Shown in pieces: positions 1,579-17,337 of a stretch of DNA of 64,000 nt (position 1 is the first letter of the stretch; each line of letters starts with the position of its first letter). The notes beneath the pieces are model-generated. The model was not told the DNA's origin and did not search any database. It saw nothing but the letters and a program-made list of their open reading frames with translations. Source of the DNA: Escherichia coli (GTDB lineage Bacteria > Pseudomonadota > Gammaproteobacteria > Enterobacterales > Enterobacteriaceae); assembly GCF_003790525.1 (NCBI RefSeq), contig NZ_CP033635.1. One strand, 5' to 3'. Made by a program: the position numbers and the translations under genes.

Positions 1579-2118
1579 ATGTCTTCCAGAGTTTTGACCC
1601 CGGACGTCGTTGGTATTGACGCCCTGGTACACGATCACCAAACCGTTCTGGCAAAAGCTGAAGGCGGTGTGGTTGCCGTATTTGCTAACAATGCCCCGGC
1701 GTTTTATGCTGTCACGCCTGCACGCCTGGCTGAACTGCTGGCGCTGGAAGAAAAGCTGGCGCGTCCGGGAAGCGATGTCGCTCTGGACGATCAACTCTAT
1801 CAGGAACCGCAAGCCGCTCCCGTTGCTGTACCCATGGGGAAATTCGCCATGTATCCGGACTGGCAACCCGATGCCGACTTTATCCGCCTGGCGGCGCTAT
1901 GGGGCGTGGCGCTAAGAGAGCCGGTGACCACCGAAGAACTGGCCTCATTCATTGCCTACTGGCAGGCGGAAGGTAAAGTCTTTCACCATGTGCAGTGGCA
2001 ACAAAAACTGGCGCGCAGCCTGCAAATCGGCCGTGCCAGCAACGGCGGACTGCCGAAACGAGATGTGAATACGGTCAGTGAACCTGACAGCCAAATTCCA
2101 CCAGGATTCAGAGGGTAA
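1579..2118 (+). CDS. dnaT: Primosomal protein DnaT
   Basis: ORF 1567..2118 (TTG-opened); in-frame ATG at 1579 gives [20 protein letters not shown]..., 179 aa, recognised as DnaT; immediately followed by dnaC. Confidence 0.95.
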
Positions 2119-2120
2119 CG

Positions 2121-2858
2121 ATGAAAAACGTTGGCGACCTGATGCAACGCCTGCAAAAAATGATGCCTGCCCATATCAAACCTGCGTTCAAAACGGGTGA
2201 AGAACTACTGGCCTGGCAGAAAGAACAAGGAGCGATCCGCTCCGCCGCTCTCGAACGTGAAAATCGGGCGATGAAAATGCAGCGCACCTTTAACCGCTCC
2301 GGTATTCGTCCACTGCATCAGAACTGCTCCTTTGAGAACTATCGCGTTGAGTGTGAAGGGCAGATGAATGCGTTAAGCAAAGCGCGCCAGTATGTCGAAG
2401 AATTTGACGGCAACATCGCCAGCTTCATCTTTTCTGGCAAGCCCGGAACCGGCAAAAACCATCTGGCGGCGGCAATCTGCAACGAACTGCTGCTACGCGG
2501 TAAATCCGTATTGATCATCACCGTGGCTGATATTATGTCGGCGATGAAAGATACCTTCAGGAATAGCGGTACCAGCGAAGAACAACTGCTTAGCGATCTG
2601 AGCAACGTTGATCTGCTGGTGATCGATGAGATCGGCGTGCAGACCGAATCGAAATACGAAAAAGTGATCATCAACCAGATCGTCGATCGCCGCTCTTCTT
2701 CCAAACGCCCAACTGGGATGCTGACCAACAGTAATATGGAAGAGATGACCAAGTTGCTGGGCGAACGCGTGATGGACCGTATGCGCCTGGGTAACAGTTT
2801 GTGGGTGATCTTCAACTGGGATAGCTACCGTAGCCGGGTAACGGGTAAAGAGTATTAA
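2121..2858 (+). CDS. dnaC: Helicase loader DnaC (AAA+ ATPase)
   Basis: 245 aa; Walker A GKPGTGKNHLAAAI, Walker B LLVIDEIG; start 2 nt after dnaT stop. Confidence 0.95.
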   Translation: MKNVGDLMQRLQKMMPAHIKPAFKTGEELLAWQKEQGAIRSAALERENRAMKMQRTFNRSGIRPLHQNCSFENYRVECEGQMNALSKARQYVEEFDGNIASFIFSGKPGTGKNHLAAAICNELLLRGKSVLIITVADIMSAMKDTFRNSGTSEEQLLSDLSNVDLLVIDEIGVQTESKYEKVIINQIVDRRSSSKRPTGMLTNSNMEEMTKLLGERVMDRMRLGNSLWVIFNWDSYRSRVTGKEY

Positions 2859-2906
2859 TCCCCGTTTCTGGCGGTATACTGCGACACAATTCCACCTTGA
2901 GTAATG

Positions 2907-3401
2907 ATGATGAAAACTGTTAAACATCTTCTGTGCTGTGCCATTGCCGCCAGCGCATTAATTTCCACCGGGGTGCATGCTGCGTCCTGGAAAGATGCGC
3001 TCTCCAGCGCAGCCAGCGAACTTGGCAACCAAAACAGCACGACACAGGAAGGCGGTTGGTCGCTCGCTTCATTAACTAGCTTGCTTAGCAGCGGGAACCA
3101 GGCCTTAAGCGCAGATAACATGAACAATGCCGCAGGCATACTGCAATACTGCGCGAAGCAGAAGTTGGCTTCGGTAACCGATGCCGAAAACATCAAGAAT
3201 CAGGTACTGGAAAAACTGGGCCTGAACAGTGAAGAGCAAAAAGAAGACACCAACTATCTGGATGGCATTCAGGGTTTGCTGAAAACCAAAGATGGTCAGC
3301 AACTCAATCTGGATAATATTGGAACGACTCCGCTGGCAGAAAAGGTGAAAACCAAAGCCTGCGATCTGGTGTTAAAGCAGGGGCTGAACTTCATTTCCTG
3401 A
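2907..3401 (+). CDS. yjjA: YjjA, secreted DUF2501-family protein
   Basis: ORF 2904..3401; signal-peptide-like N-terminus MKTVKHLLCCAIAASALISTGVHA; synteny. Confidence 0.85.
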   Translation: MMKTVKHLLCCAIAASALISTGVHAASWKDALSSAASELGNQNSTTQEGGWSLASLTSLLSSGNQALSADNMNNAAGILQYCAKQKLASVTDAENIKNQVLEKLGLNSEEQKEDTNYLDGIQGLLKTKDGQQLNLDNIGTTPLAEKVKTKACDLVLKQGLNFIS

Positions 3402-9783: not shown

Positions 9784-11448
9784 TTAAAACGTTTCCCAGT
9801 TCTCCCCGCTATCTGCCACGGCCATTTTACGCGGCGCAGCTGGCGTCACGGTTTTTACCACAGCCGATGTTTCACGCTGATGTTGCTGCTGTTGCTGAAT
9901 CCGGAACACTGCCACAGCTTCGGTCAGGCGACTGGCCTGCTCTTCCAGCGCGGCGGCGGCAGCGGCAGATTCTTCCACCAGCGCAGCGTTCTGTTGAGTT
10001 ACCCGGTCCATCTCAGCAACCGCTAATCCAACCTGATCGATACCACGGCTCTGCTCATCAGAAGCAGAAGCTATTTCGCCCATAATGTCCGTCACGCGGG
10101 TCACAGCGCTGACAATCTCTGCCATGGTTTCCCCGGCGCTTTCGACCAGCGTAGAGCCAACATCCACTTTGCCCACCGAGTCTTCAATCAGGCTTTTAAT
10201 TTCGCGAGCCGCCTGAGCGCTACGCTGGGCCAGATTACGCACTTCTCCCGCAACCACCGCAAAACCGCGCCCTTGCTCACCCGCGCGCGCTGCTTCAACC
10301 GCCGCGTTCAAAGCGAGAATATTGGTCTGGAAGGCAATGCCGTCAATTACGCTGATAATATCGGCGATTTTCTGCGAACTGGTGGAGATATCGCGCATGG
10401 TCTGCACCACGTTATCCACCACTTTGCCGCCGCGTTGCGCCGTTTCAGAAGCACTTAACGCCAGGTGGCTGGCCTGGCGCGCATTTTCGGCGTTCTGCTT
10501 CACCGTTGCGGTCAGTTGCTCCATGCTGGCTGCCGTCTCTTCCAGCGAAGCGGCCTGTTGCTCGGTGCGCGAAGAGAGATCGTTATTGCCGGTAGCGATT
10601 TCGCTGGCACCGCTATAGATGGCATTGGCCCCGTTGCGCACATCACCGACGGTACGCATCAGCTCTCCCTGCATATGGCGCAAACTCTCAGCCAGTTGCC
10701 CCATCTCATTAGAGCCATCCACCTCAATCGGTTTCACCAGATCGCCGCCTGCAATATGACGAATGCTGTCAATCAGGCGATTCATTGGCGCTACCAACGA
10801 GGCTTTAATACCGAACCAGACGGCGAAGATGACCGCCAGTACGACGATCATCACGCCCACCAGAATCCACATCGCCTGGCTGTAGGAGGCATTATTATCG
10901 CTGACGGCGATATCATAGAGCCGATCGTTTTGCTCCATGTAAGCCACATACTGCTTCTCGAAACCGTCCTGATATCCCTGGGTTGGCTGATCAAAGAACT
11001 CGTTGATTTTGCCTGCACCTAACAGTTGGATCAGCTCCGCCAGCGCATTGTGATAAATATCGTAATTACGTTTGATCTCTGCCGCTGCGGCGGTGCTCTG
11101 ACGCGGGTCACGCGGCAACGCTTCGTAATCCGCCCAGTTTTTTTCCGCCTGTTTCAGCGAAATACTGGCACTCTGCATCAGCTCAGCAACGGTTGAACCG
11201 CTACCAATATTATTCTGATCCATCATGTAGCGGATACCCGCGCGGTTGAGGGTGTTACGCGTCTGCAACAACGCGACCCAGCTGCCATTCAGCGTGGATT
11301 GCTGCTGGCGAATGGTTTGTAAAACAGTGAAATTTTCTTTGTCATTCTTTAAGGCATTAAAGAACAGACCGCCTGATGTCAGTTGTAAAAGGCCAAAAAC
11401 GGCCAAAACCAGCAGTAAGCTGGTCACGATCTTGATACGTTTTAACAT
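9784..11448 (-). CDS. tsr: Methyl-accepting chemotaxis protein I (serine chemoreceptor)
   Basis: ORF 9784..11463, start placed at MLKRIKIV (ATG at 11448); HAMP and MCP signalling domains, C-terminal NWETF pentapeptide. Confidence 0.95.
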
Positions 11449-11587: not shown

Positions 11588-12493
11588 ATGGTACAAAGTA
11601 TCAATCTTCTTCGAACCAGTGATACTCCTATGGCTTATAGCATCGATATCATCTCCTGCATTACCGAACGGTTTATGGCGTTAACAGCCACTGAAAAGCG
11701 TATCGCACAATTTATTCTTGATGACGTCTCTGCCGCAGTAGAGTTGCCAATTGCTGAGCTGGCACGGTTAACGCAAACCAGTCAGGCGTCGGTGACGCGT
11801 TTTGCCCGTGCACTGGGGTGCAAAGATGTCCGCGAGTTGAAAGTCAAACTGGCGCAGTCACTGGCTGTCGGGCAGCGGTTTATTCTCGATGTACCGGATC
11901 TTGACGGTGTTCAGGGGATCTACGAAGCGATTATTAGCGTGCTGGAGACGCATCGTCGTTCGCTGGATATGAATGCCATCAGCCAGGCTGTAAGCTGGTT
12001 AAGTCAGGCGCGGCAAATTCTTGCGTTAGGAACTGGCGGCGGTTCCACTATCTGTTCACAGGAGATTCAGTACCGTTTATTCCGTCTGGGGCTACCGGTG
12101 GTCAGTCAGAATGATGCCCTGATGATGAGAATGATGTGCTCGGCAGTCATGCCGCAGGATGTGGTGATTGTGCTTTCGCTGGGCGGTTATACACCGGAAA
12201 TCATCGAAAGTGCGGCAATCGCCCGTCAGTATGGCGCGCGTGTTATTGCCATTACGCCAGCACAAACACCGCTGGCGGAACAGGTGGATCTGGTATTGCC
12301 GTTACTGGTTCAGGAAAGTGATTACATCTTTAAGCCCACCCCTTCCCGCTACGCGATGTTAGCCATGGTCGATGTACTGGCAACAGAACTGGCAATGGCA
12401 AATAAAGCGCAGGCGAAAGATCGCCTGCGGCGGATAAAACTCGTGTTAGACAGCCACCGTGGGGGCGCTAACCGCCAGCCACTTGGCGATTAG
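11588..12493 (+). CDS. RpiR/MurR-family transcriptional regulator (HTH + SIS domain)
   Basis: 301-aa ORF; N-terminal HTH (EKRIAQFILDDVSAAVELPIAELARLTQTSQASVTRFARALG) and C-terminal SIS-like region; true start may be an internal Met. Confidence 0.7.
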   Translation: MVQSINLLRTSDTPMAYSIDIISCITERFMALTATEKRIAQFILDDVSAAVELPIAELARLTQTSQASVTRFARALGCKDVRELKVKLAQSLAVGQRFILDVPDLDGVQGIYEAIISVLETHRRSLDMNAISQAVSWLSQARQILALGTGGGSTICSQEIQYRLFRLGLPVVSQNDALMMRMMCSAVMPQDVVIVLSLGGYTPEIIESAAIARQYGARVIAITPAQTPLAEQVDLVLPLLVQESDYIFKPTPSRYAMLAMVDVLATELAMANKAQAKDRLRRIKLVLDSHRGGANRQPLGD

Positions 12494-12502
12494 CATTGTC
12501 GG

Positions 12503-13972
12503 TTATGCTTCTTCAGGTTTGGTGATCACGACACTCTGGTTTTCACGCTCATTGGTGATAATAGCCAAAGCTTCTTCCCGGCTGACCTGACTTGCTGGCG
12601 TTACCAACGTCACCAGTACGCCAGCGACCAGGCTGCCCAGCACTGACGGAATACACGGGTTACCCCAGTAAGCCAGCCAGTCGGCATTCATCAGCACCAC
12701 AATTGACATCACCATACCACTCACTAACGCCGCCAGCGCGCCCTGCCAGTTAAAGCGTAGCCAGAAGCGACCGAGAATCGAGCAGATAAACAACCCGGAC
12801 ATCAGCATCGAAATCATTTTGGTAATGTAGCTGATGATGTCGTTAGAGGTCAGAGCAAAGACCAGCGCCAGGCCAATAACAAAGGTCAACATCCAGCGTG
12901 AGTAAGTGATTGCCTTATCCTCCGGCGGCATTCTGCCGGTAATCATGGTGTAGACGTCGCGCATCATAATCGCCACCGCCGCGATGGCATCGGAGCTGGC
13001 AGAAGACATGGTGGCTGAAAGCCCGGCAATCAGCACCACCAGCCCAAGAATGGCAGGTAAGAAACTGGTCGCGAACAAGAAGGCGTAGTTGCTGTTTTCC
13101 AGATTTGGGTTCATGGTGAACGCCGCCATGCCGATAATGGCAGGCAAAATCGAGAAGAACAGATATAACACCCCAGTAATAACAAACGAACGGCGTACAG
13201 AGGGAACATCTTTACCCGAGTAAATACGCTGGCGATAAGACGGTGTTGCCAGCACACCTACGCCAATAACCAGTGCCAGCGAAAGCGCAGGCAGCACGCC
13301 CATTTTATCAATCGCAAACAGGCTCATCGCTTTTGGGTCCATCGCCTGCTCAATCGCACTCCAGCCGCCAACGTGAACAACGGCAAGAATAGCCATTAAT
13401 ATAAAGCCAAAGAACAGAATTAGGGCCTGAATAGTATCTGTCCACACTACCGCCGAATAACCGCCGATAATAACGTAAATCGCAAAAGCTAAGGCAATAA
13501 TTAATTTTGCCACCGTAAGATCAATACCTGTTGCCCAGGCAAGATACATACTTCCACCTAATATATGCGCCCCCAGCCAGCCAATAGAGGCAATAAATAT
13601 CATCAGGCCGACAATATTTTTAATTAAATGGCTGCCGCCAGTATAATAAGATATTTCTTCACTCATGGTCATAAATCGTAATTTACGTACCGGTGCAAAC
13701 AGCCACGCCACCAGTAATATACCTACGGCCCCACCGACGCCATAAAGCATTCCGGCCCAGCCATTGCTGTAGCCAAAGCCCACTGCGCCCATACTGGAAC
13801 CCGTGCCAACCATCGTGGCAACGGTTGACCCCAGCGTCAGAAACAGCGGCAGCGAACGCCCGCCCAGCAGAAAATCTTCTCCGCTTTTCTGATTACGAGA
13901 AACAAACCAACCAAGCCAAATCATGGCGATGGCATAAATAATAAAGCCGACTAAAAAGATATGACTGTTCAT
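12503..13972 (-). CDS. Sodium:solute symporter (SSS family) transporter
   Basis: 489-aa polytopic membrane protein; first gene of minus-strand unit with RidA and D-aminoacylase. Confidence 0.7.
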   Translation of the reverse strand: MNSHIFLVGFIIYAIAMIWLGWFVSRNQKSGEDFLLGGRSLPLFLTLGSTVATMVGTGSSMGAVGFGYSNGWAGMLYGVGGAVGILLVAWLFAPVRKLRFMTMSEEISYYTGGSHLIKNIVGLMIFIASIGWLGAHILGGSMYLAWATGIDLTVAKLIIALAFAIYVIIGGYSAVVWTDTIQALILFFGFILMAILAVVHVGGWSAIEQAMDPKAMSLFAIDKMGVLPALSLALVIGVGVLATPSYRQRIYSGKDVPSVRRSFVITGVLYLFFSILPAIIGMAAFTMNPNLENSNYAFLFATSFLPAILGLVVLIAGLSATMSSASSDAIAAVAIMMRDVYTMITGRMPPEDKAITYSRWMLTFVIGLALVFALTSNDIISYITKMISMLMSGLFICSILGRFWLRFNWQGALAALVSGMVMSIVVLMNADWLAYWGNPCIPSVLGSLVAGVLVTLVTPASQVSREEALAIITNERENQSVVITKPEEA

Positions 13973-14074
13973 AATTCACATCCTGCCAGTAGAGAGAAAT
14001 TAATGTAAGAGTTCCCGGAGTGCTGAATGTATTCAGCACTCAATTGCGGTCTGTTTTTTTAATTCTTAAATTTA

Positions 14075-14470
14075 TTAGCGGGTCGCGTTATAACAGGTCA
14101 CATCGACTTCGACTTTACAATCGACAACCAGATCAGCCACACAACAAATACGTGCAGGTGGATTCTCGCCAAAAAATTCTCTGAATACTTTATTAAATGA
14201 CTGGAAATAGCGGGCGTCGGTCAGGATCACTTTCACGTGAACCACATCCACCAGGCTATAACCGGCTTCAGTCATGATGTCGACACAGTTTTGAATCGCC
14301 AGTCGTGACTGTTCAACGATTCCGCCTTCTACCACTTCACCGTTTTTCATGGGTGTTTGCCCGGAGACGTACAGCCAGCCGCCCGCCTCAACCGCCCTGG
14401 CAAAAGGCAAATGCTGCCCGCCAGTGCCTGTTCCACCTTCCGTACCGTAACGTTTAATGCTCATATTCAC
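14075..14470 (-). CDS. RidA/YjgF-family reactive enamine/imine deaminase
   Basis: 131 aa, size and sequence typical of RidA/YjgF/TdcF family; 3 nt downstream of the aminoacylase gene. Confidence 0.7.
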   Translation of the reverse strand: MNMSIKRYGTEGGTGTGGQHLPFARAVEAGGWLYVSGQTPMKNGEVVEGGIVEQSRLAIQNCVDIMTEAGYSLVDVVHVKVILTDARYFQSFNKVFREFFGENPPARICCVADLVVDCKVEVDVTCYNATR

Positions 14471-14473
14471 TCC

Positions 14474-15925
14474 TTAATGTGAGGTCTGCCGGCGCAGGAA
14501 GCGTCCCGCACGGCCTGTAATATGTTTATCGGGACCATAGCTCATAACGCCGTTCACCATCACCGCCTCAATGCCATCTGCCGGGCGTTTGGGATCAGAA
14601 AAGCTGGCAACATCACGAATGGTTTGTGGATCGAACAACACCAGGTCCGCAAAATAGCCAACTTTCACCAGCCCACGCTGGGGCAGGCGAAAACGGCTGG
14701 CAGAAAGCCCGGTCATTTTGTGGATAGCCGTGGTCAGTGGGAATAAGCCTTCATCACGGCAATAGTGGCCCAGCACGCGAGGGAAGGCGCCCCATAAACG
14801 TGGATGCGGCATGGGATCATTGGGCAGGCCGTCAGAGCCAATCATACTGACCGGATAACTCAACACTCGGCGGACGTCGCGCTCGTCCATGTTGTAATAG
14901 ATAGCCCCGGCAGGCATTAGCAGCTTCGCGGCCTCCAGCATACTCATCTGCCAGTCGATGGCGATTTGCGCCAGTGTTTTCCCGGCCTGCTGCGGATGTG
15001 TTTGTGACCAGGTGATCACAATATCGAATTCGTCGGTGACTTGTTTGAGATCCAGCGTTGAAGAGCTGGCTGAGTAAGGGTAGACATCGCAGCCAATTTC
15101 CTGGTGTTGACGCATTTGGTCAAAAAAGGCCAACGTTTCTTTTGTCCGCCCCCAGTTTTTCGCCCCGGCGCATTTATGGTGGGAAACCACGACAGGCACT
15201 TTGCCATGACGCCCAATACGAAACGCCTCATCCAGGGCATCGAGAATCGGTTCAAATTCAGAACGCAGATGGGTGGTATAAACGCCCTTCTCACCGGCTA
15301 ATTCTTCCGCCAGCGCCATGACTTCTTCGGTAGTCGCCTGAAATGCCGTTGCATAGGCCAGCCCGGAACTTAACCCCAGCGCCCCCTGACTCAACGCCAG
15401 ACGTAAGTCGGCACGCATAGCGGCAATTTCATCCACCGTCGCCGGGCGAAACAGGTCGTCCATATGGTTATTACGCAGCGCCGTATGACCAATCAGCGTG
15501 CCAACGTTCAGTGACGGCCTGGCTGCTTCCACTGCCTGGGCATAGCTTTCAACGGTAGGATAAATAAAGTGCTCTGCTTCCCCCAACAGATTCATCGGGT
15601 CAGGAACTTCACCTTTCATTTTCGCCGACGCCGCACTAATCCCGCAGTTACCGACAATCACCGTAGTGATCCCCTGGCTGATCTTTGGCAGATATTCCGG
15701 GATGCGAATAACGTTGATATCGTCATGGGTATGAACGTCGATAAACCCTGGTGCCAGCACCCGCCCTTCCCCGTCAATGACCTGCTGCGCCGTAACGTTA
15801 AGCGCAGGGGCAATATCGACAATCCGATCACCTGTTATTGCCACGTCACCGCGAAATTCAGGGCCGCCGCTACCGTCGATAACGGTCACATTTTTGATTA
15901 ACCAGTCAACCTGCATGTTCGTCAC
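14474..15925 (-). CDS. N-acyl-D-amino-acid deacylase (D-aminoacylase), amidohydrolase superfamily
   Basis: 483 aa; metal-binding GFIDVHTHDD, and blocks PKISQGITTVIVGNCGIS, VPVVVSHHK, MIGSDGLP, HPRLWGAFPRVLGHY that match D-aminoacylases as I recall them. Confidence 0.8.
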   Translation of the reverse strand: MTNMQVDWLIKNVTVIDGSGGPEFRGDVAITGDRIVDIAPALNVTAQQVIDGEGRVLAPGFIDVHTHDDINVIRIPEYLPKISQGITTVIVGNCGISAASAKMKGEVPDPMNLLGEAEHFIYPTVESYAQAVEAARPSLNVGTLIGHTALRNNHMDDLFRPATVDEIAAMRADLRLALSQGALGLSSGLAYATAFQATTEEVMALAEELAGEKGVYTTHLRSEFEPILDALDEAFRIGRHGKVPVVVSHHKCAGAKNWGRTKETLAFFDQMRQHQEIGCDVYPYSASSSTLDLKQVTDEFDIVITWSQTHPQQAGKTLAQIAIDWQMSMLEAAKLLMPAGAIYYNMDERDVRRVLSYPVSMIGSDGLPNDPMPHPRLWGAFPRVLGHYCRDEGLFPLTTAIHKMTGLSASRFRLPQRGLVKVGYFADLVLFDPQTIRDVASFSDPKRPADGIEAVMVNGVMSYGPDKHITGRAGRFLRRQTSH

Positions 15926-16116
15926 TCCATTTCTGCAATGGTGACAAGTTAACCATTTACAAGGACGAAAAACAGTGGAAAACTACGCAAAACCCAGATG
16001 ATTTTATGATACTTTTATTCATAAATAATAAGATAAATAAACTAAATATTTATATTTCATTTAGTTACAAATGATACTCACATCCGATACGGTGAAAAAC
16101 TTAAAAGGTAAATGTT

Positions 16117-17337
16117 ATGAAATACCACTCAGAACCTCTGGTTCCCCATAAATCTGCCCTGATGCAAATGCCCGCAAATCTCCTTGCCGAAGATGTCTGT
16201 TTACCTGCCGCGATCATTAAAAAGCAGGCCCTGGAGAACAACATTACGTGGATGCAACGCTACGCTGACGCGCGCGGCGTTTCACTGGCACCGCACGGTA
16301 AAACCACCATGACGCCGTGGATTTTTCAGGCGCAGCAGGCGGCTGGTGCCTGGGCAATAGGTGTCGGTAGCGCATGGCAGGCTGGTGCGGCAATGGCGAG
16401 CGGTATTCAGCGAGTGCTGATGGTTAACCAGCTGGTCGGCAAGGCGAATATGCAGTTGATTGCCCAGTTGCAACGACATTACCCGACGGTCGATTTTATC
16501 AGCTGTATCGACAGCATTGAGAACGCCCGCGCTTTGTCTGCCTTTTTTGCCAGTCAGCAACAGACACTGAACGTGATGATTGAGTTGGGTGTCCCCGGCG
16601 GGCGCTGTGGTTGCCGCTCAAGGGATGCCGCACTGACACTGGCTAAACAGGCAGCCCAATTACCGGGGTTACGCCTGCGGGGGCTTGAGTTATATGAAGG
16701 CGTTTTACACGGTGACGATCCACAACCGCAGGTAGAAGCTCTGCTGCGGGATGCCGCACAACTGGCCTGTGATATGGCAAGTCTGGTTGATGGCGAGTTT
16801 ATTCTCACCGGAGCAGGCACGGTCTGGTATGACGTGGTGTGCAATATCTGGCTGGCGGCAGAAAAGCCTGATAACTGCCGCATTGTTATTCGCCCTGGCT
16901 GCTACATCACTCACGACACCGGGATCTACGACGCGGCACAACAACAGTTGCTTGCCCGTGATCCTGTGGCTTGCGATCTGGCAGGCGATCTCACATCTGC
17001 ACTGGAACTGGTCGCCATGGTGCAATCGGTGCCGGAAGCTGATCGTGCGGTGGTTAATTTTGGTAAGCGTGATTGCGCCTTCGACGCCGGACTGCCGCAA
17101 CCAGTCGCCCACTATCGCAACGGCAAATCACTGGCATTTGATCCACAGGCGATTCGCAGTACAGGCATTATGGATCAGCACTGCATGTTGCAGTTGGGTG
17201 CCGACAGCGACGTGCAAGTGGGGGATATTCTGGTGTTTGGCACATCGCATCCGTGCCTGACCTTCGACAAATGGAAAACGTTGTTATTGACTGATGACGA
17301 CTACAACGTACTGGCAGAATTAGACACTCTCTTCTAA
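16117..17337 (+). CDS. PLP-dependent D-amino-acid dehydratase/aldolase, alanine-racemase-N fold (DSD1-like)
   Basis: 406 aa; candidate PLP lysine in APHGKTTM; divergent from the aminoacylase unit across an AT-rich promoter region. Confidence 0.6.
   Translation: MKYHSEPLVPHKSALMQMPANLLAEDVCLPAAIIKKQALENNITWMQRYADARGVSLAPHGKTTMTPWIFQAQQAAGAWAIGVGSAWQAGAAMASGIQRVLMVNQLVGKANMQLIAQLQRHYPTVDFISCIDSIENARALSAFFASQQQTLNVMIELGVPGGRCGCRSRDAALTLAKQAAQLPGLRLRGLELYEGVLHGDDPQPQVEALLRDAAQLACDMASLVDGEFILTGAGTVWYDVVCNIWLAAEKPDNCRIVIRPGCYITHDTGIYDAAQQQLLARDPVACDLAGDLTSALELVAMVQSVPEADRAVVNFGKRDCAFDAGLPQPVAHYRNGKSLAFDPQAIRSTGIMDQHCMLQLGADSDVQVGDILVFGTSHPCLTFDKWKTLLLTDDDYNVLAELDTLF

Follow-up and report, generated by a model that had tools for sequence, protein, structure and literature searches.

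An in-frame 9-bp tandem repeat of variable copy number at the start of the Tsr tether of Escherichia coli, with K-12 as a probable contracted variant

The C-terminal tail of Tsr, the serine chemoreceptor of Escherichia coli, begins in a short tandem repeat with a 9-bp unit, which different strains carry in one to four whole copies, always in frame. We analyzed this repeat in a stretch of 64,000 nucleotides from E. coli (RefSeq assembly GCF_003790525.1, contig NZ_CP033635.1; hereafter the window), whose strain is referred to here by the name SMS-3-5. The window allele has two units, which is the common and evidently also the ancestral length, while the 551-residue Tsr of K-12 is a minority form that appears to have lost one unit. 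What sets the window allele apart is a histidine codon that interrupts the repeat, and not its length. As a whole, the explanation developed below, which covers the anatomy of the repeat, slippage, contraction in K-12, the histidine codon as a relic and a small functional effect, strikes us as highly probable.

The identification of the gene as tsr in an earlier note, made from the sequence alone, holds. The window gene (Table 1) is 100% identical to the annotated tsr of E. coli SMS-3-5 (NC_010498.1; 1665 nt, WP_000919560.1), and over its full length it shares 97.5% nucleotide identity with the tsr of K-12 (b4355). Its orthology to the latter is established by this near-identity and by the retained position adjoining lgoT, with lgoT-lgoR-lgoD lying downstream in both genomes alike. 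The list of open reading frames started the gene at an upstream GTG, giving 559 residues, whereas the start in RefSeq, at the methionine of MLKRIK, gives 554. Pfam recovers TarH (residues 1-176, E 9e-55), HAMP (217-263) and MCPsignal (327-484, E 1e-62), i.e. the order of a Tar-type four-helix ligand-binding domain, HAMP and an MCP signaling domain found in Tsr orthologues, and the translation terminates in SGENWETF with the docking pentapeptide intact. Given the near-identity to K-12 Tsr, the window allele would be expected to sense serine and to dock CheR and CheB.

The genomic neighborhood of tsr differs between strains. In SMS-3-5 five genes lie between tsr and btsT (window 11630-17337; NC_010498.1 5014092-5019799), encoding a MurR/RpiR regulator, a sodium:solute symporter, RidA, an N-acyl-D-amino-acid deacylase and an amino acid deaminase, a set which looks like a small D-amino-acid catabolic island; in K-12, btsT directly adjoins tsr. 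In HS, hpaR is found immediately upstream of tsr (positions 1-63 of the extract). Downstream of tsr, LF82, BEN2908, CFT073 and N24 have TRAP transporter permease genes (about 1850-3400 of the extracts), and K-12 and SMS-3-5 have lgoT there.

Table 1. Location of tsr and of the tether features in the window
Feature	Position	Strand	Basis
tsr, serine chemoreceptor (methyl-accepting chemotaxis protein I)	9784..11448	minus	554 codons plus stop; RefSeq annotation has the same start and end
NWETF pentapeptide codons, CheR/CheB docking site	9787..9801	minus	translation; function from the literature
Non-conserved C-terminal tether, I517 to E549, 33 residues versus 30 in K-12	9802..9900	minus	count from I517 as in PMC10561060
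9-bp tandem repeat array: CAGCAACAG, then CAGCAACAT, then CAG; QQQQQHQ, residues 518-524	9877..9897	minus	sequence reading, Tandem Repeats Finder, codon display against other strains
Second repeat unit CAGCAACAT, 9 nt absent from K-12	9880..9888	minus	pairwise alignment with MG1655 tsr
CAT codon (His523), interrupting the otherwise perfect repeat	9880..9882	minus	most two-copy alleles have CAG here

In codons, the window array reads (CAG CAA CAG)(CAG CAA CAT) CAG, with RE encoded next, as against (CAG CAA CAG) CAG in K-12; on the plus strand, positions 9877-9897 are ctgatgttgctgctgttgctg. Tandem Repeats Finder detects an array of period 9 at 9876-9898 (2.6 copies, score 39, 85% matches). The units lie head to tail as direct repeats, and in most other strains the array is perfect. 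The start of the tether is encoded by an in-frame tandem repeat of the unit CAGCAACAG, always with one further CAG after it. Any two of the lengths seen are separated by 9 nt or a multiple of it, so that the unit that slips is this 9-mer rather than a single CAG or CAA triplet.

The tsr of MG1655 is 1656 nt long and encodes 551 residues. In a global alignment with it, the only indel is one of 9 nt, located at gene positions 1561-1569 (about 9880-9888 of the window); the placement of this gap inside the array is arbitrary. The two genes are further separated by 32 substitutions, through which three residues differ (Q92E, Y178H and G548E in the window numbering). The residues that K-12 lacks are QQH, at the receptor-proximal end of the tether. 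The earlier note had given Tsr 554 residues against 551 in K-12, had read QQQQQHQRE ahead of the C-terminal tail, and had placed the three-residue difference inside a CAG/CAA-type repeat of the flexible tether with NWETF; the sequence and the alignment bear it out on each count, and the plus-strand string it quoted, gttgctgctgttgctg, is located at 9882-9897. Its suggestion of in-frame slippage is strengthened by the series of one-, two-, three- and four-unit alleles on unrelated haplotypes described below, but the unit of what it called a CAG/CAA-type repeat is 9 bp and not a triplet.

Variation in the array takes the form of whole units (Table 2). No intermediate length was seen in the 19 aligned genes or in about 300 matches listed; the glutamine runs seen were Q4, Q7, Q10 and Q13 only. 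We surveyed 5,426 complete E. coli genomes, in 39 of which a tsr match is absent; one strain, a7, keeps only the first 212 nt of the gene, and three plasmid records in the E. coli genome search carry a tsr match of 80-90% identity. Copy number was counted with asymmetric queries that have a short left flank (E ≤ 1e-10), for which coverage reports copy number directly. The two-unit length accounts for about 76% of genomes: the 90-nt window query aligned end to end without a gap in 4,130 of 5,332, a count which includes a few three-unit places joined from two pieces. One unit is found in 1,212 of 5,290 genomes (22.9%), a figure inflated by laboratory derivatives of K-12, to which, or to other laboratory strains, 4 of 14 sampled one-unit entries belong; since such derivatives are numerous in the collection, the K-12 allele has a natural frequency below 23%. 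Three or more units occur in 71 genomes. Two other queries were set aside for this purpose. The 81-nt K-12 query was unable to separate the alleles, for its shortened alignments, at 80.2% query coverage, passed the 80% line. Counts from a symmetric 97-nt three-unit query were misleading, as one-unit genomes appeared as two joined pieces with 100% identity and over 80% coverage; it was used solely to establish that at least 60 genomes, HS and LF82 among them, have three units. Our literature searches found no description of this polymorphism of the tsr tether repeat.

Table 2. Copy-number alleles of the 9-bp repeat
Units	Glutamine run	Tsr length	Strains
1	Q4	551 aa	K-12, E92, BEN2908; also 3R, whose tsr is frameshifted
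2 (perfect)	Q7	554 aa	CFT073, an ST131 strain, an O157 strain, many others
3	Q10	557 aa	HS, LF82, N24
4	Q13	560 aa	Z1323HEC0355 (1683 nt)

Elsewhere in tsr there is a second short repeat, GCGGCA on the plus strand with a period of 6 (window 9950-9968), which encodes an Ala6 run, A495-A500, situated between the methylation sites E493 and E502. In OkiPb01695, 6 nt of this repeat are missing, resulting in Ala4 and a Tsr of 552 residues (WP_060773897.1); such a two-residue deletion would shift the helix register between the two methylation sites and may impair the receptor.

The peculiarity of the window allele, its CAT codon, is best considered against a divergent Escherichia genome (labeled E. 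coli SCPM-O-B-8794, L034), whose tsr differs by about 10% in nucleotides while retaining 95% amino-acid identity. At the repeat site this outgroup has CAG CAA GCG CAA CAG CGT CAG (QQAQQRQ), without a gap relative to the window. The sixth codon of the run is accordingly CGT in the outgroup, CGC in the allele typified by RMDEC465, CAT in the window and CAG in the majority, whose third position is G where the window and the outgroup have T. The exact 90-nt window allele with CAT was found in 196 genomes. In the tree described below, the CAT carriers branch just inside the RMDEC465 allele, and the perfect-repeat alleles are brought together at a node with only 60% bootstrap support. Because its T matches the CGT of the outgroup, the histidine codon is probably, though with only modest confidence, a relic that predates the perfect repeat, with the window preserving the stage just before it. 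The path would then run from CGT through CAT to CAG, the final T-to-G change creating a perfect array that later contracted and expanded. This reading draws on one congeneric outgroup, one codon and one weakly supported node. Its competitor is a recent CAG-to-CAT mutation within the SMS-3-5 group, which would have interrupted the repeat and thereby stabilized it. The small number of genomes with CAT and the low bootstrap value of that same node speak for such a mutation, and it would be just one step less parsimonious, as CGT to CAG followed by CAG to CAT takes one step more than the direct path; against it stand this extra step, the T common to the outgroup, and the 26 sites at which the tsr genes of the two CAT carriers compared, SMS-3-5 and 23CRST009, differ, which mean that CAT is not confined to one young clone. 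On balance, we regard the recent mutation as a tentative possibility and continue with the histidine as a probable relic.

The RMDEC465-type tsr (L092, 51-1715) has QQEQQRQ instead of the repeat and shows 37-57 differences from other E. coli alleles; about 40 genomes share it. We considered it as the basal state in E. coli, and dropped this view as its carriers include O6:H16 strains. We keep it as an ancestral-like allele, which may have been imported from another Escherichia lineage rather than being an old E. coli state.

To place the length alleles, we built a neighbor-joining tree of 18 E. coli tsr genes and the outgroup, with the repeat masked and 300 bootstrap replicates. Monophyly of the four one-unit alleles was recovered in none of the 300. 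A single clade with 100% support (CFT073, TUM1223, BEN2908, N24, Z1323HEC0355 and LF82) holds alleles with one, two, three and four units. Within it, BEN2908, with one unit, differs from TUM1223, with two, at 2 of 1,629 sites, as opposed to 26 sites from K-12, and it keeps the GCA codon of its clade 6 nt downstream of the repeat. The three-unit alleles likewise sit on two backgrounds, with HS differing from LF82 and N24 at 25-32 sites. In all, one-unit alleles are found on at least three tsr backgrounds and three-unit alleles on at least two. The presence of the same lengths on unrelated haplotypes means that length changes have recurred, the pattern expected of in-frame slippage; as to mechanism, whole 9-bp units were most likely gained and lost by slipped-strand mispairing during replication.

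Alternatively, each length allele might have arisen once and been spread by homologous recombination, the array being no more mutable than other sequence. E. coli tsr variation is indeed mosaic, the flanking genes vary by lineage (with lgoT or the TRAP transporter downstream), and copy number is constant within clonal groups, namely the K-12 derivatives, four sequenced assemblies of HS, and O157:H7. This constancy also indicates that copy number does not change fast. Yet on either side of the repeat BEN2908 is nearly identical to two-unit alleles from its own clade, down to the clade-specific SNP, and a recombination tract would therefore have to be confined to the repeat itself; the two distant backgrounds of the three-unit alleles tell in the same direction. 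Tracts of this kind are a less economical alternative to repeated slippage. Hence, while recombination between strains could be behind part of the allele distribution, we consider it unlikely as a full account and retain recurrent slippage.

What the repeat varies is the length of a segment known from the K-12 receptors Tsr and Tar, namely the C-terminal linker with its NWETF tether (Hazelbauer, Weis and Parkinson, as cited in PMC7390727, PMC10561060 and PMC4692393). The conserved part of Tsr ends at residue 517 (PMC4692393), and beyond it an unstructured tether of some 30-35 residues offers NWETF to CheR (Kd about 2 uM) as well as to CheB (PMC7390727). The window tail corresponds to this in gene and segment: past residue 517 it is non-conserved and unstructured, within the range of about 30-35 residues, and its NWETF end would dock CheR and phospho-CheB. 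Counted from I517, the tether has 30 residues in K-12 Tsr and 34 in Tar (PMC10561060). The survey of tether length among E. coli tsr alleles that the earlier note had called for yields a natural range of 30-39 residues in Tsr, which is unmentioned in the K-12 literature that we searched.

With each 9-bp unit, the flexible tether by which CheR and phospho-CheB are kept close to the methylation sites becomes three residues longer. In engineered Tar constructs with tethers of 22, 29, 34 and 46 residues, the position fitted for tethered CheR shifts by 0.128 nm with each residue, or by 0.233 nm in an alternative fit, and the methylation sites of Tsr are spread over 2.1-7.05 nm (PMC10561060). Those constructs resemble the natural alleles in changing length with the pentapeptide intact, but their changes are larger and made at the distal end, whereas the natural Tsr steps are of three residues, at the proximal end and in glutamine. 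For three extra residues, this scaling predicts about 1.1 nm of contour length and a CheR shift of about 0.4-0.7 nm, which is small relative to the spread of the sites, so that a slight or negligible effect on adaptation is to be expected. To judge from this literature, the effect of an extra unit on adaptation kinetics is probably small and close to neutral; our literature searches found no experiments on these natural tether-length alleles. One could instead see the array as an evolvable tuning knob, in which tethers of 30, 33, 36 and 39 residues alter the methylation sites and neighboring receptors reached by tethered CheR and CheB, with lineages selected for different adaptation kinetics. 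Were this true, the K-12 Tsr of nearly all quantitative chemotaxis work would be an atypical short-tether variant. We find it improbable, and near-neutral variation remains our preferred reading.

The polarity of the length difference comes from the outgroups. Within Escherichia it rests on the one divergent genome, whose gap-free alignment gives it the window length. Beyond the genus, a scan of species-representative genomes covered the Enterobacterales among the matches listed, a set without E. albertii, E. fergusonii and Salmonella. Among these matches, Tsr orthologues from Leclercia, Enterobacter, Citrobacter, Pseudescherichia and others have 553-557 residues, with QQDQQKA, QQEQQKA or QHDQQRA at the repeat site, and 18 orthologues from other genera align with the window allele without a gap and at equal or greater length. 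The agreement of the window length with that of the outgroup and of other genera argues that it is ancestral and that the 551-residue Tsr of K-12 is contracted. The repeat itself seems to have formed through point mutations in an ancestral stretch that was equally long but not repetitive, of the form QQ[A/E/D]QQ[R/K]x. The earlier note was right that the window Tsr is longer than that of K-12, but the polarity is opposite to what such wording implies, for the window has the majority and outgroup length. A lineage-specific 9-bp insertion in the window, i.e. a duplication in SMS-3-5 on an ancestral K-12-like Tsr of 551 residues, is suggested by the resemblance of the array to a duplicated unit with one mismatch and by the use of K-12 as the reference; it is already contradicted by the prevalence of the window length and by the divergent Escherichia and other-genus orthologues of equal or greater length among the matches listed, and is very improbable. 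An error of sequencing or assembly in either genome as the source of the 9-nt difference has nothing in its favor beyond the general fragility of short repeats, and is refuted by the presence of each allele in thousands of independent complete genomes.

Among known types of repeat loci, the tsr array is an ordinary VNTR, in frame and situated in a disordered linker. It shares with the bacterial coding VNTRs used in MLVA typing a short direct repeat with a unit that is a multiple of 3, integral alleles and recurrence on different backgrounds; unlike these, it has very few copies (1-4), changes slowly by all appearances, and was apparently made by point mutations at unchanged length rather than by duplication. 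Repeat-mediated length change within a gene is also a property of phase-variable contingency loci, from which the tsr array differs in its 9-bp unit, in always keeping the frame and in being without on/off switching or any sign of high-frequency change. Phase variation was considered and rejected on the grounds that the unit is divisible by three and every array allele seen keeps the frame. The sole frameshifted tsr, that of 3R, owes its state to an unrelated 10-nt tandem duplication, GCTGGTTTTG, near codon 12 (about 135-145 of the extract), which is a separate slippage event in the gene; it is annotated as a frameshifted pseudogene.

The locus offers a small and clean example of a tandem repeat that seems to have been born by point mutations at constant length and then to have become variable in copy number, with the histidine allele of the window resembling an intermediate stage of that origin. 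It leaves the understanding of chemotaxis unchanged. Nonetheless, the Tsr of K-12, which has long served, over decades, as the standard in quantitative studies of chemotaxis and in models of tethered CheR and CheB action, has the shortest natural tether and is encoded by a minority allele; most E. coli have three more glutamines than K-12 Tsr, and some six or nine more. The natural range of tether lengths is therefore relevant when assistance neighborhoods are modeled or the tethers of Tsr and Tar are compared.
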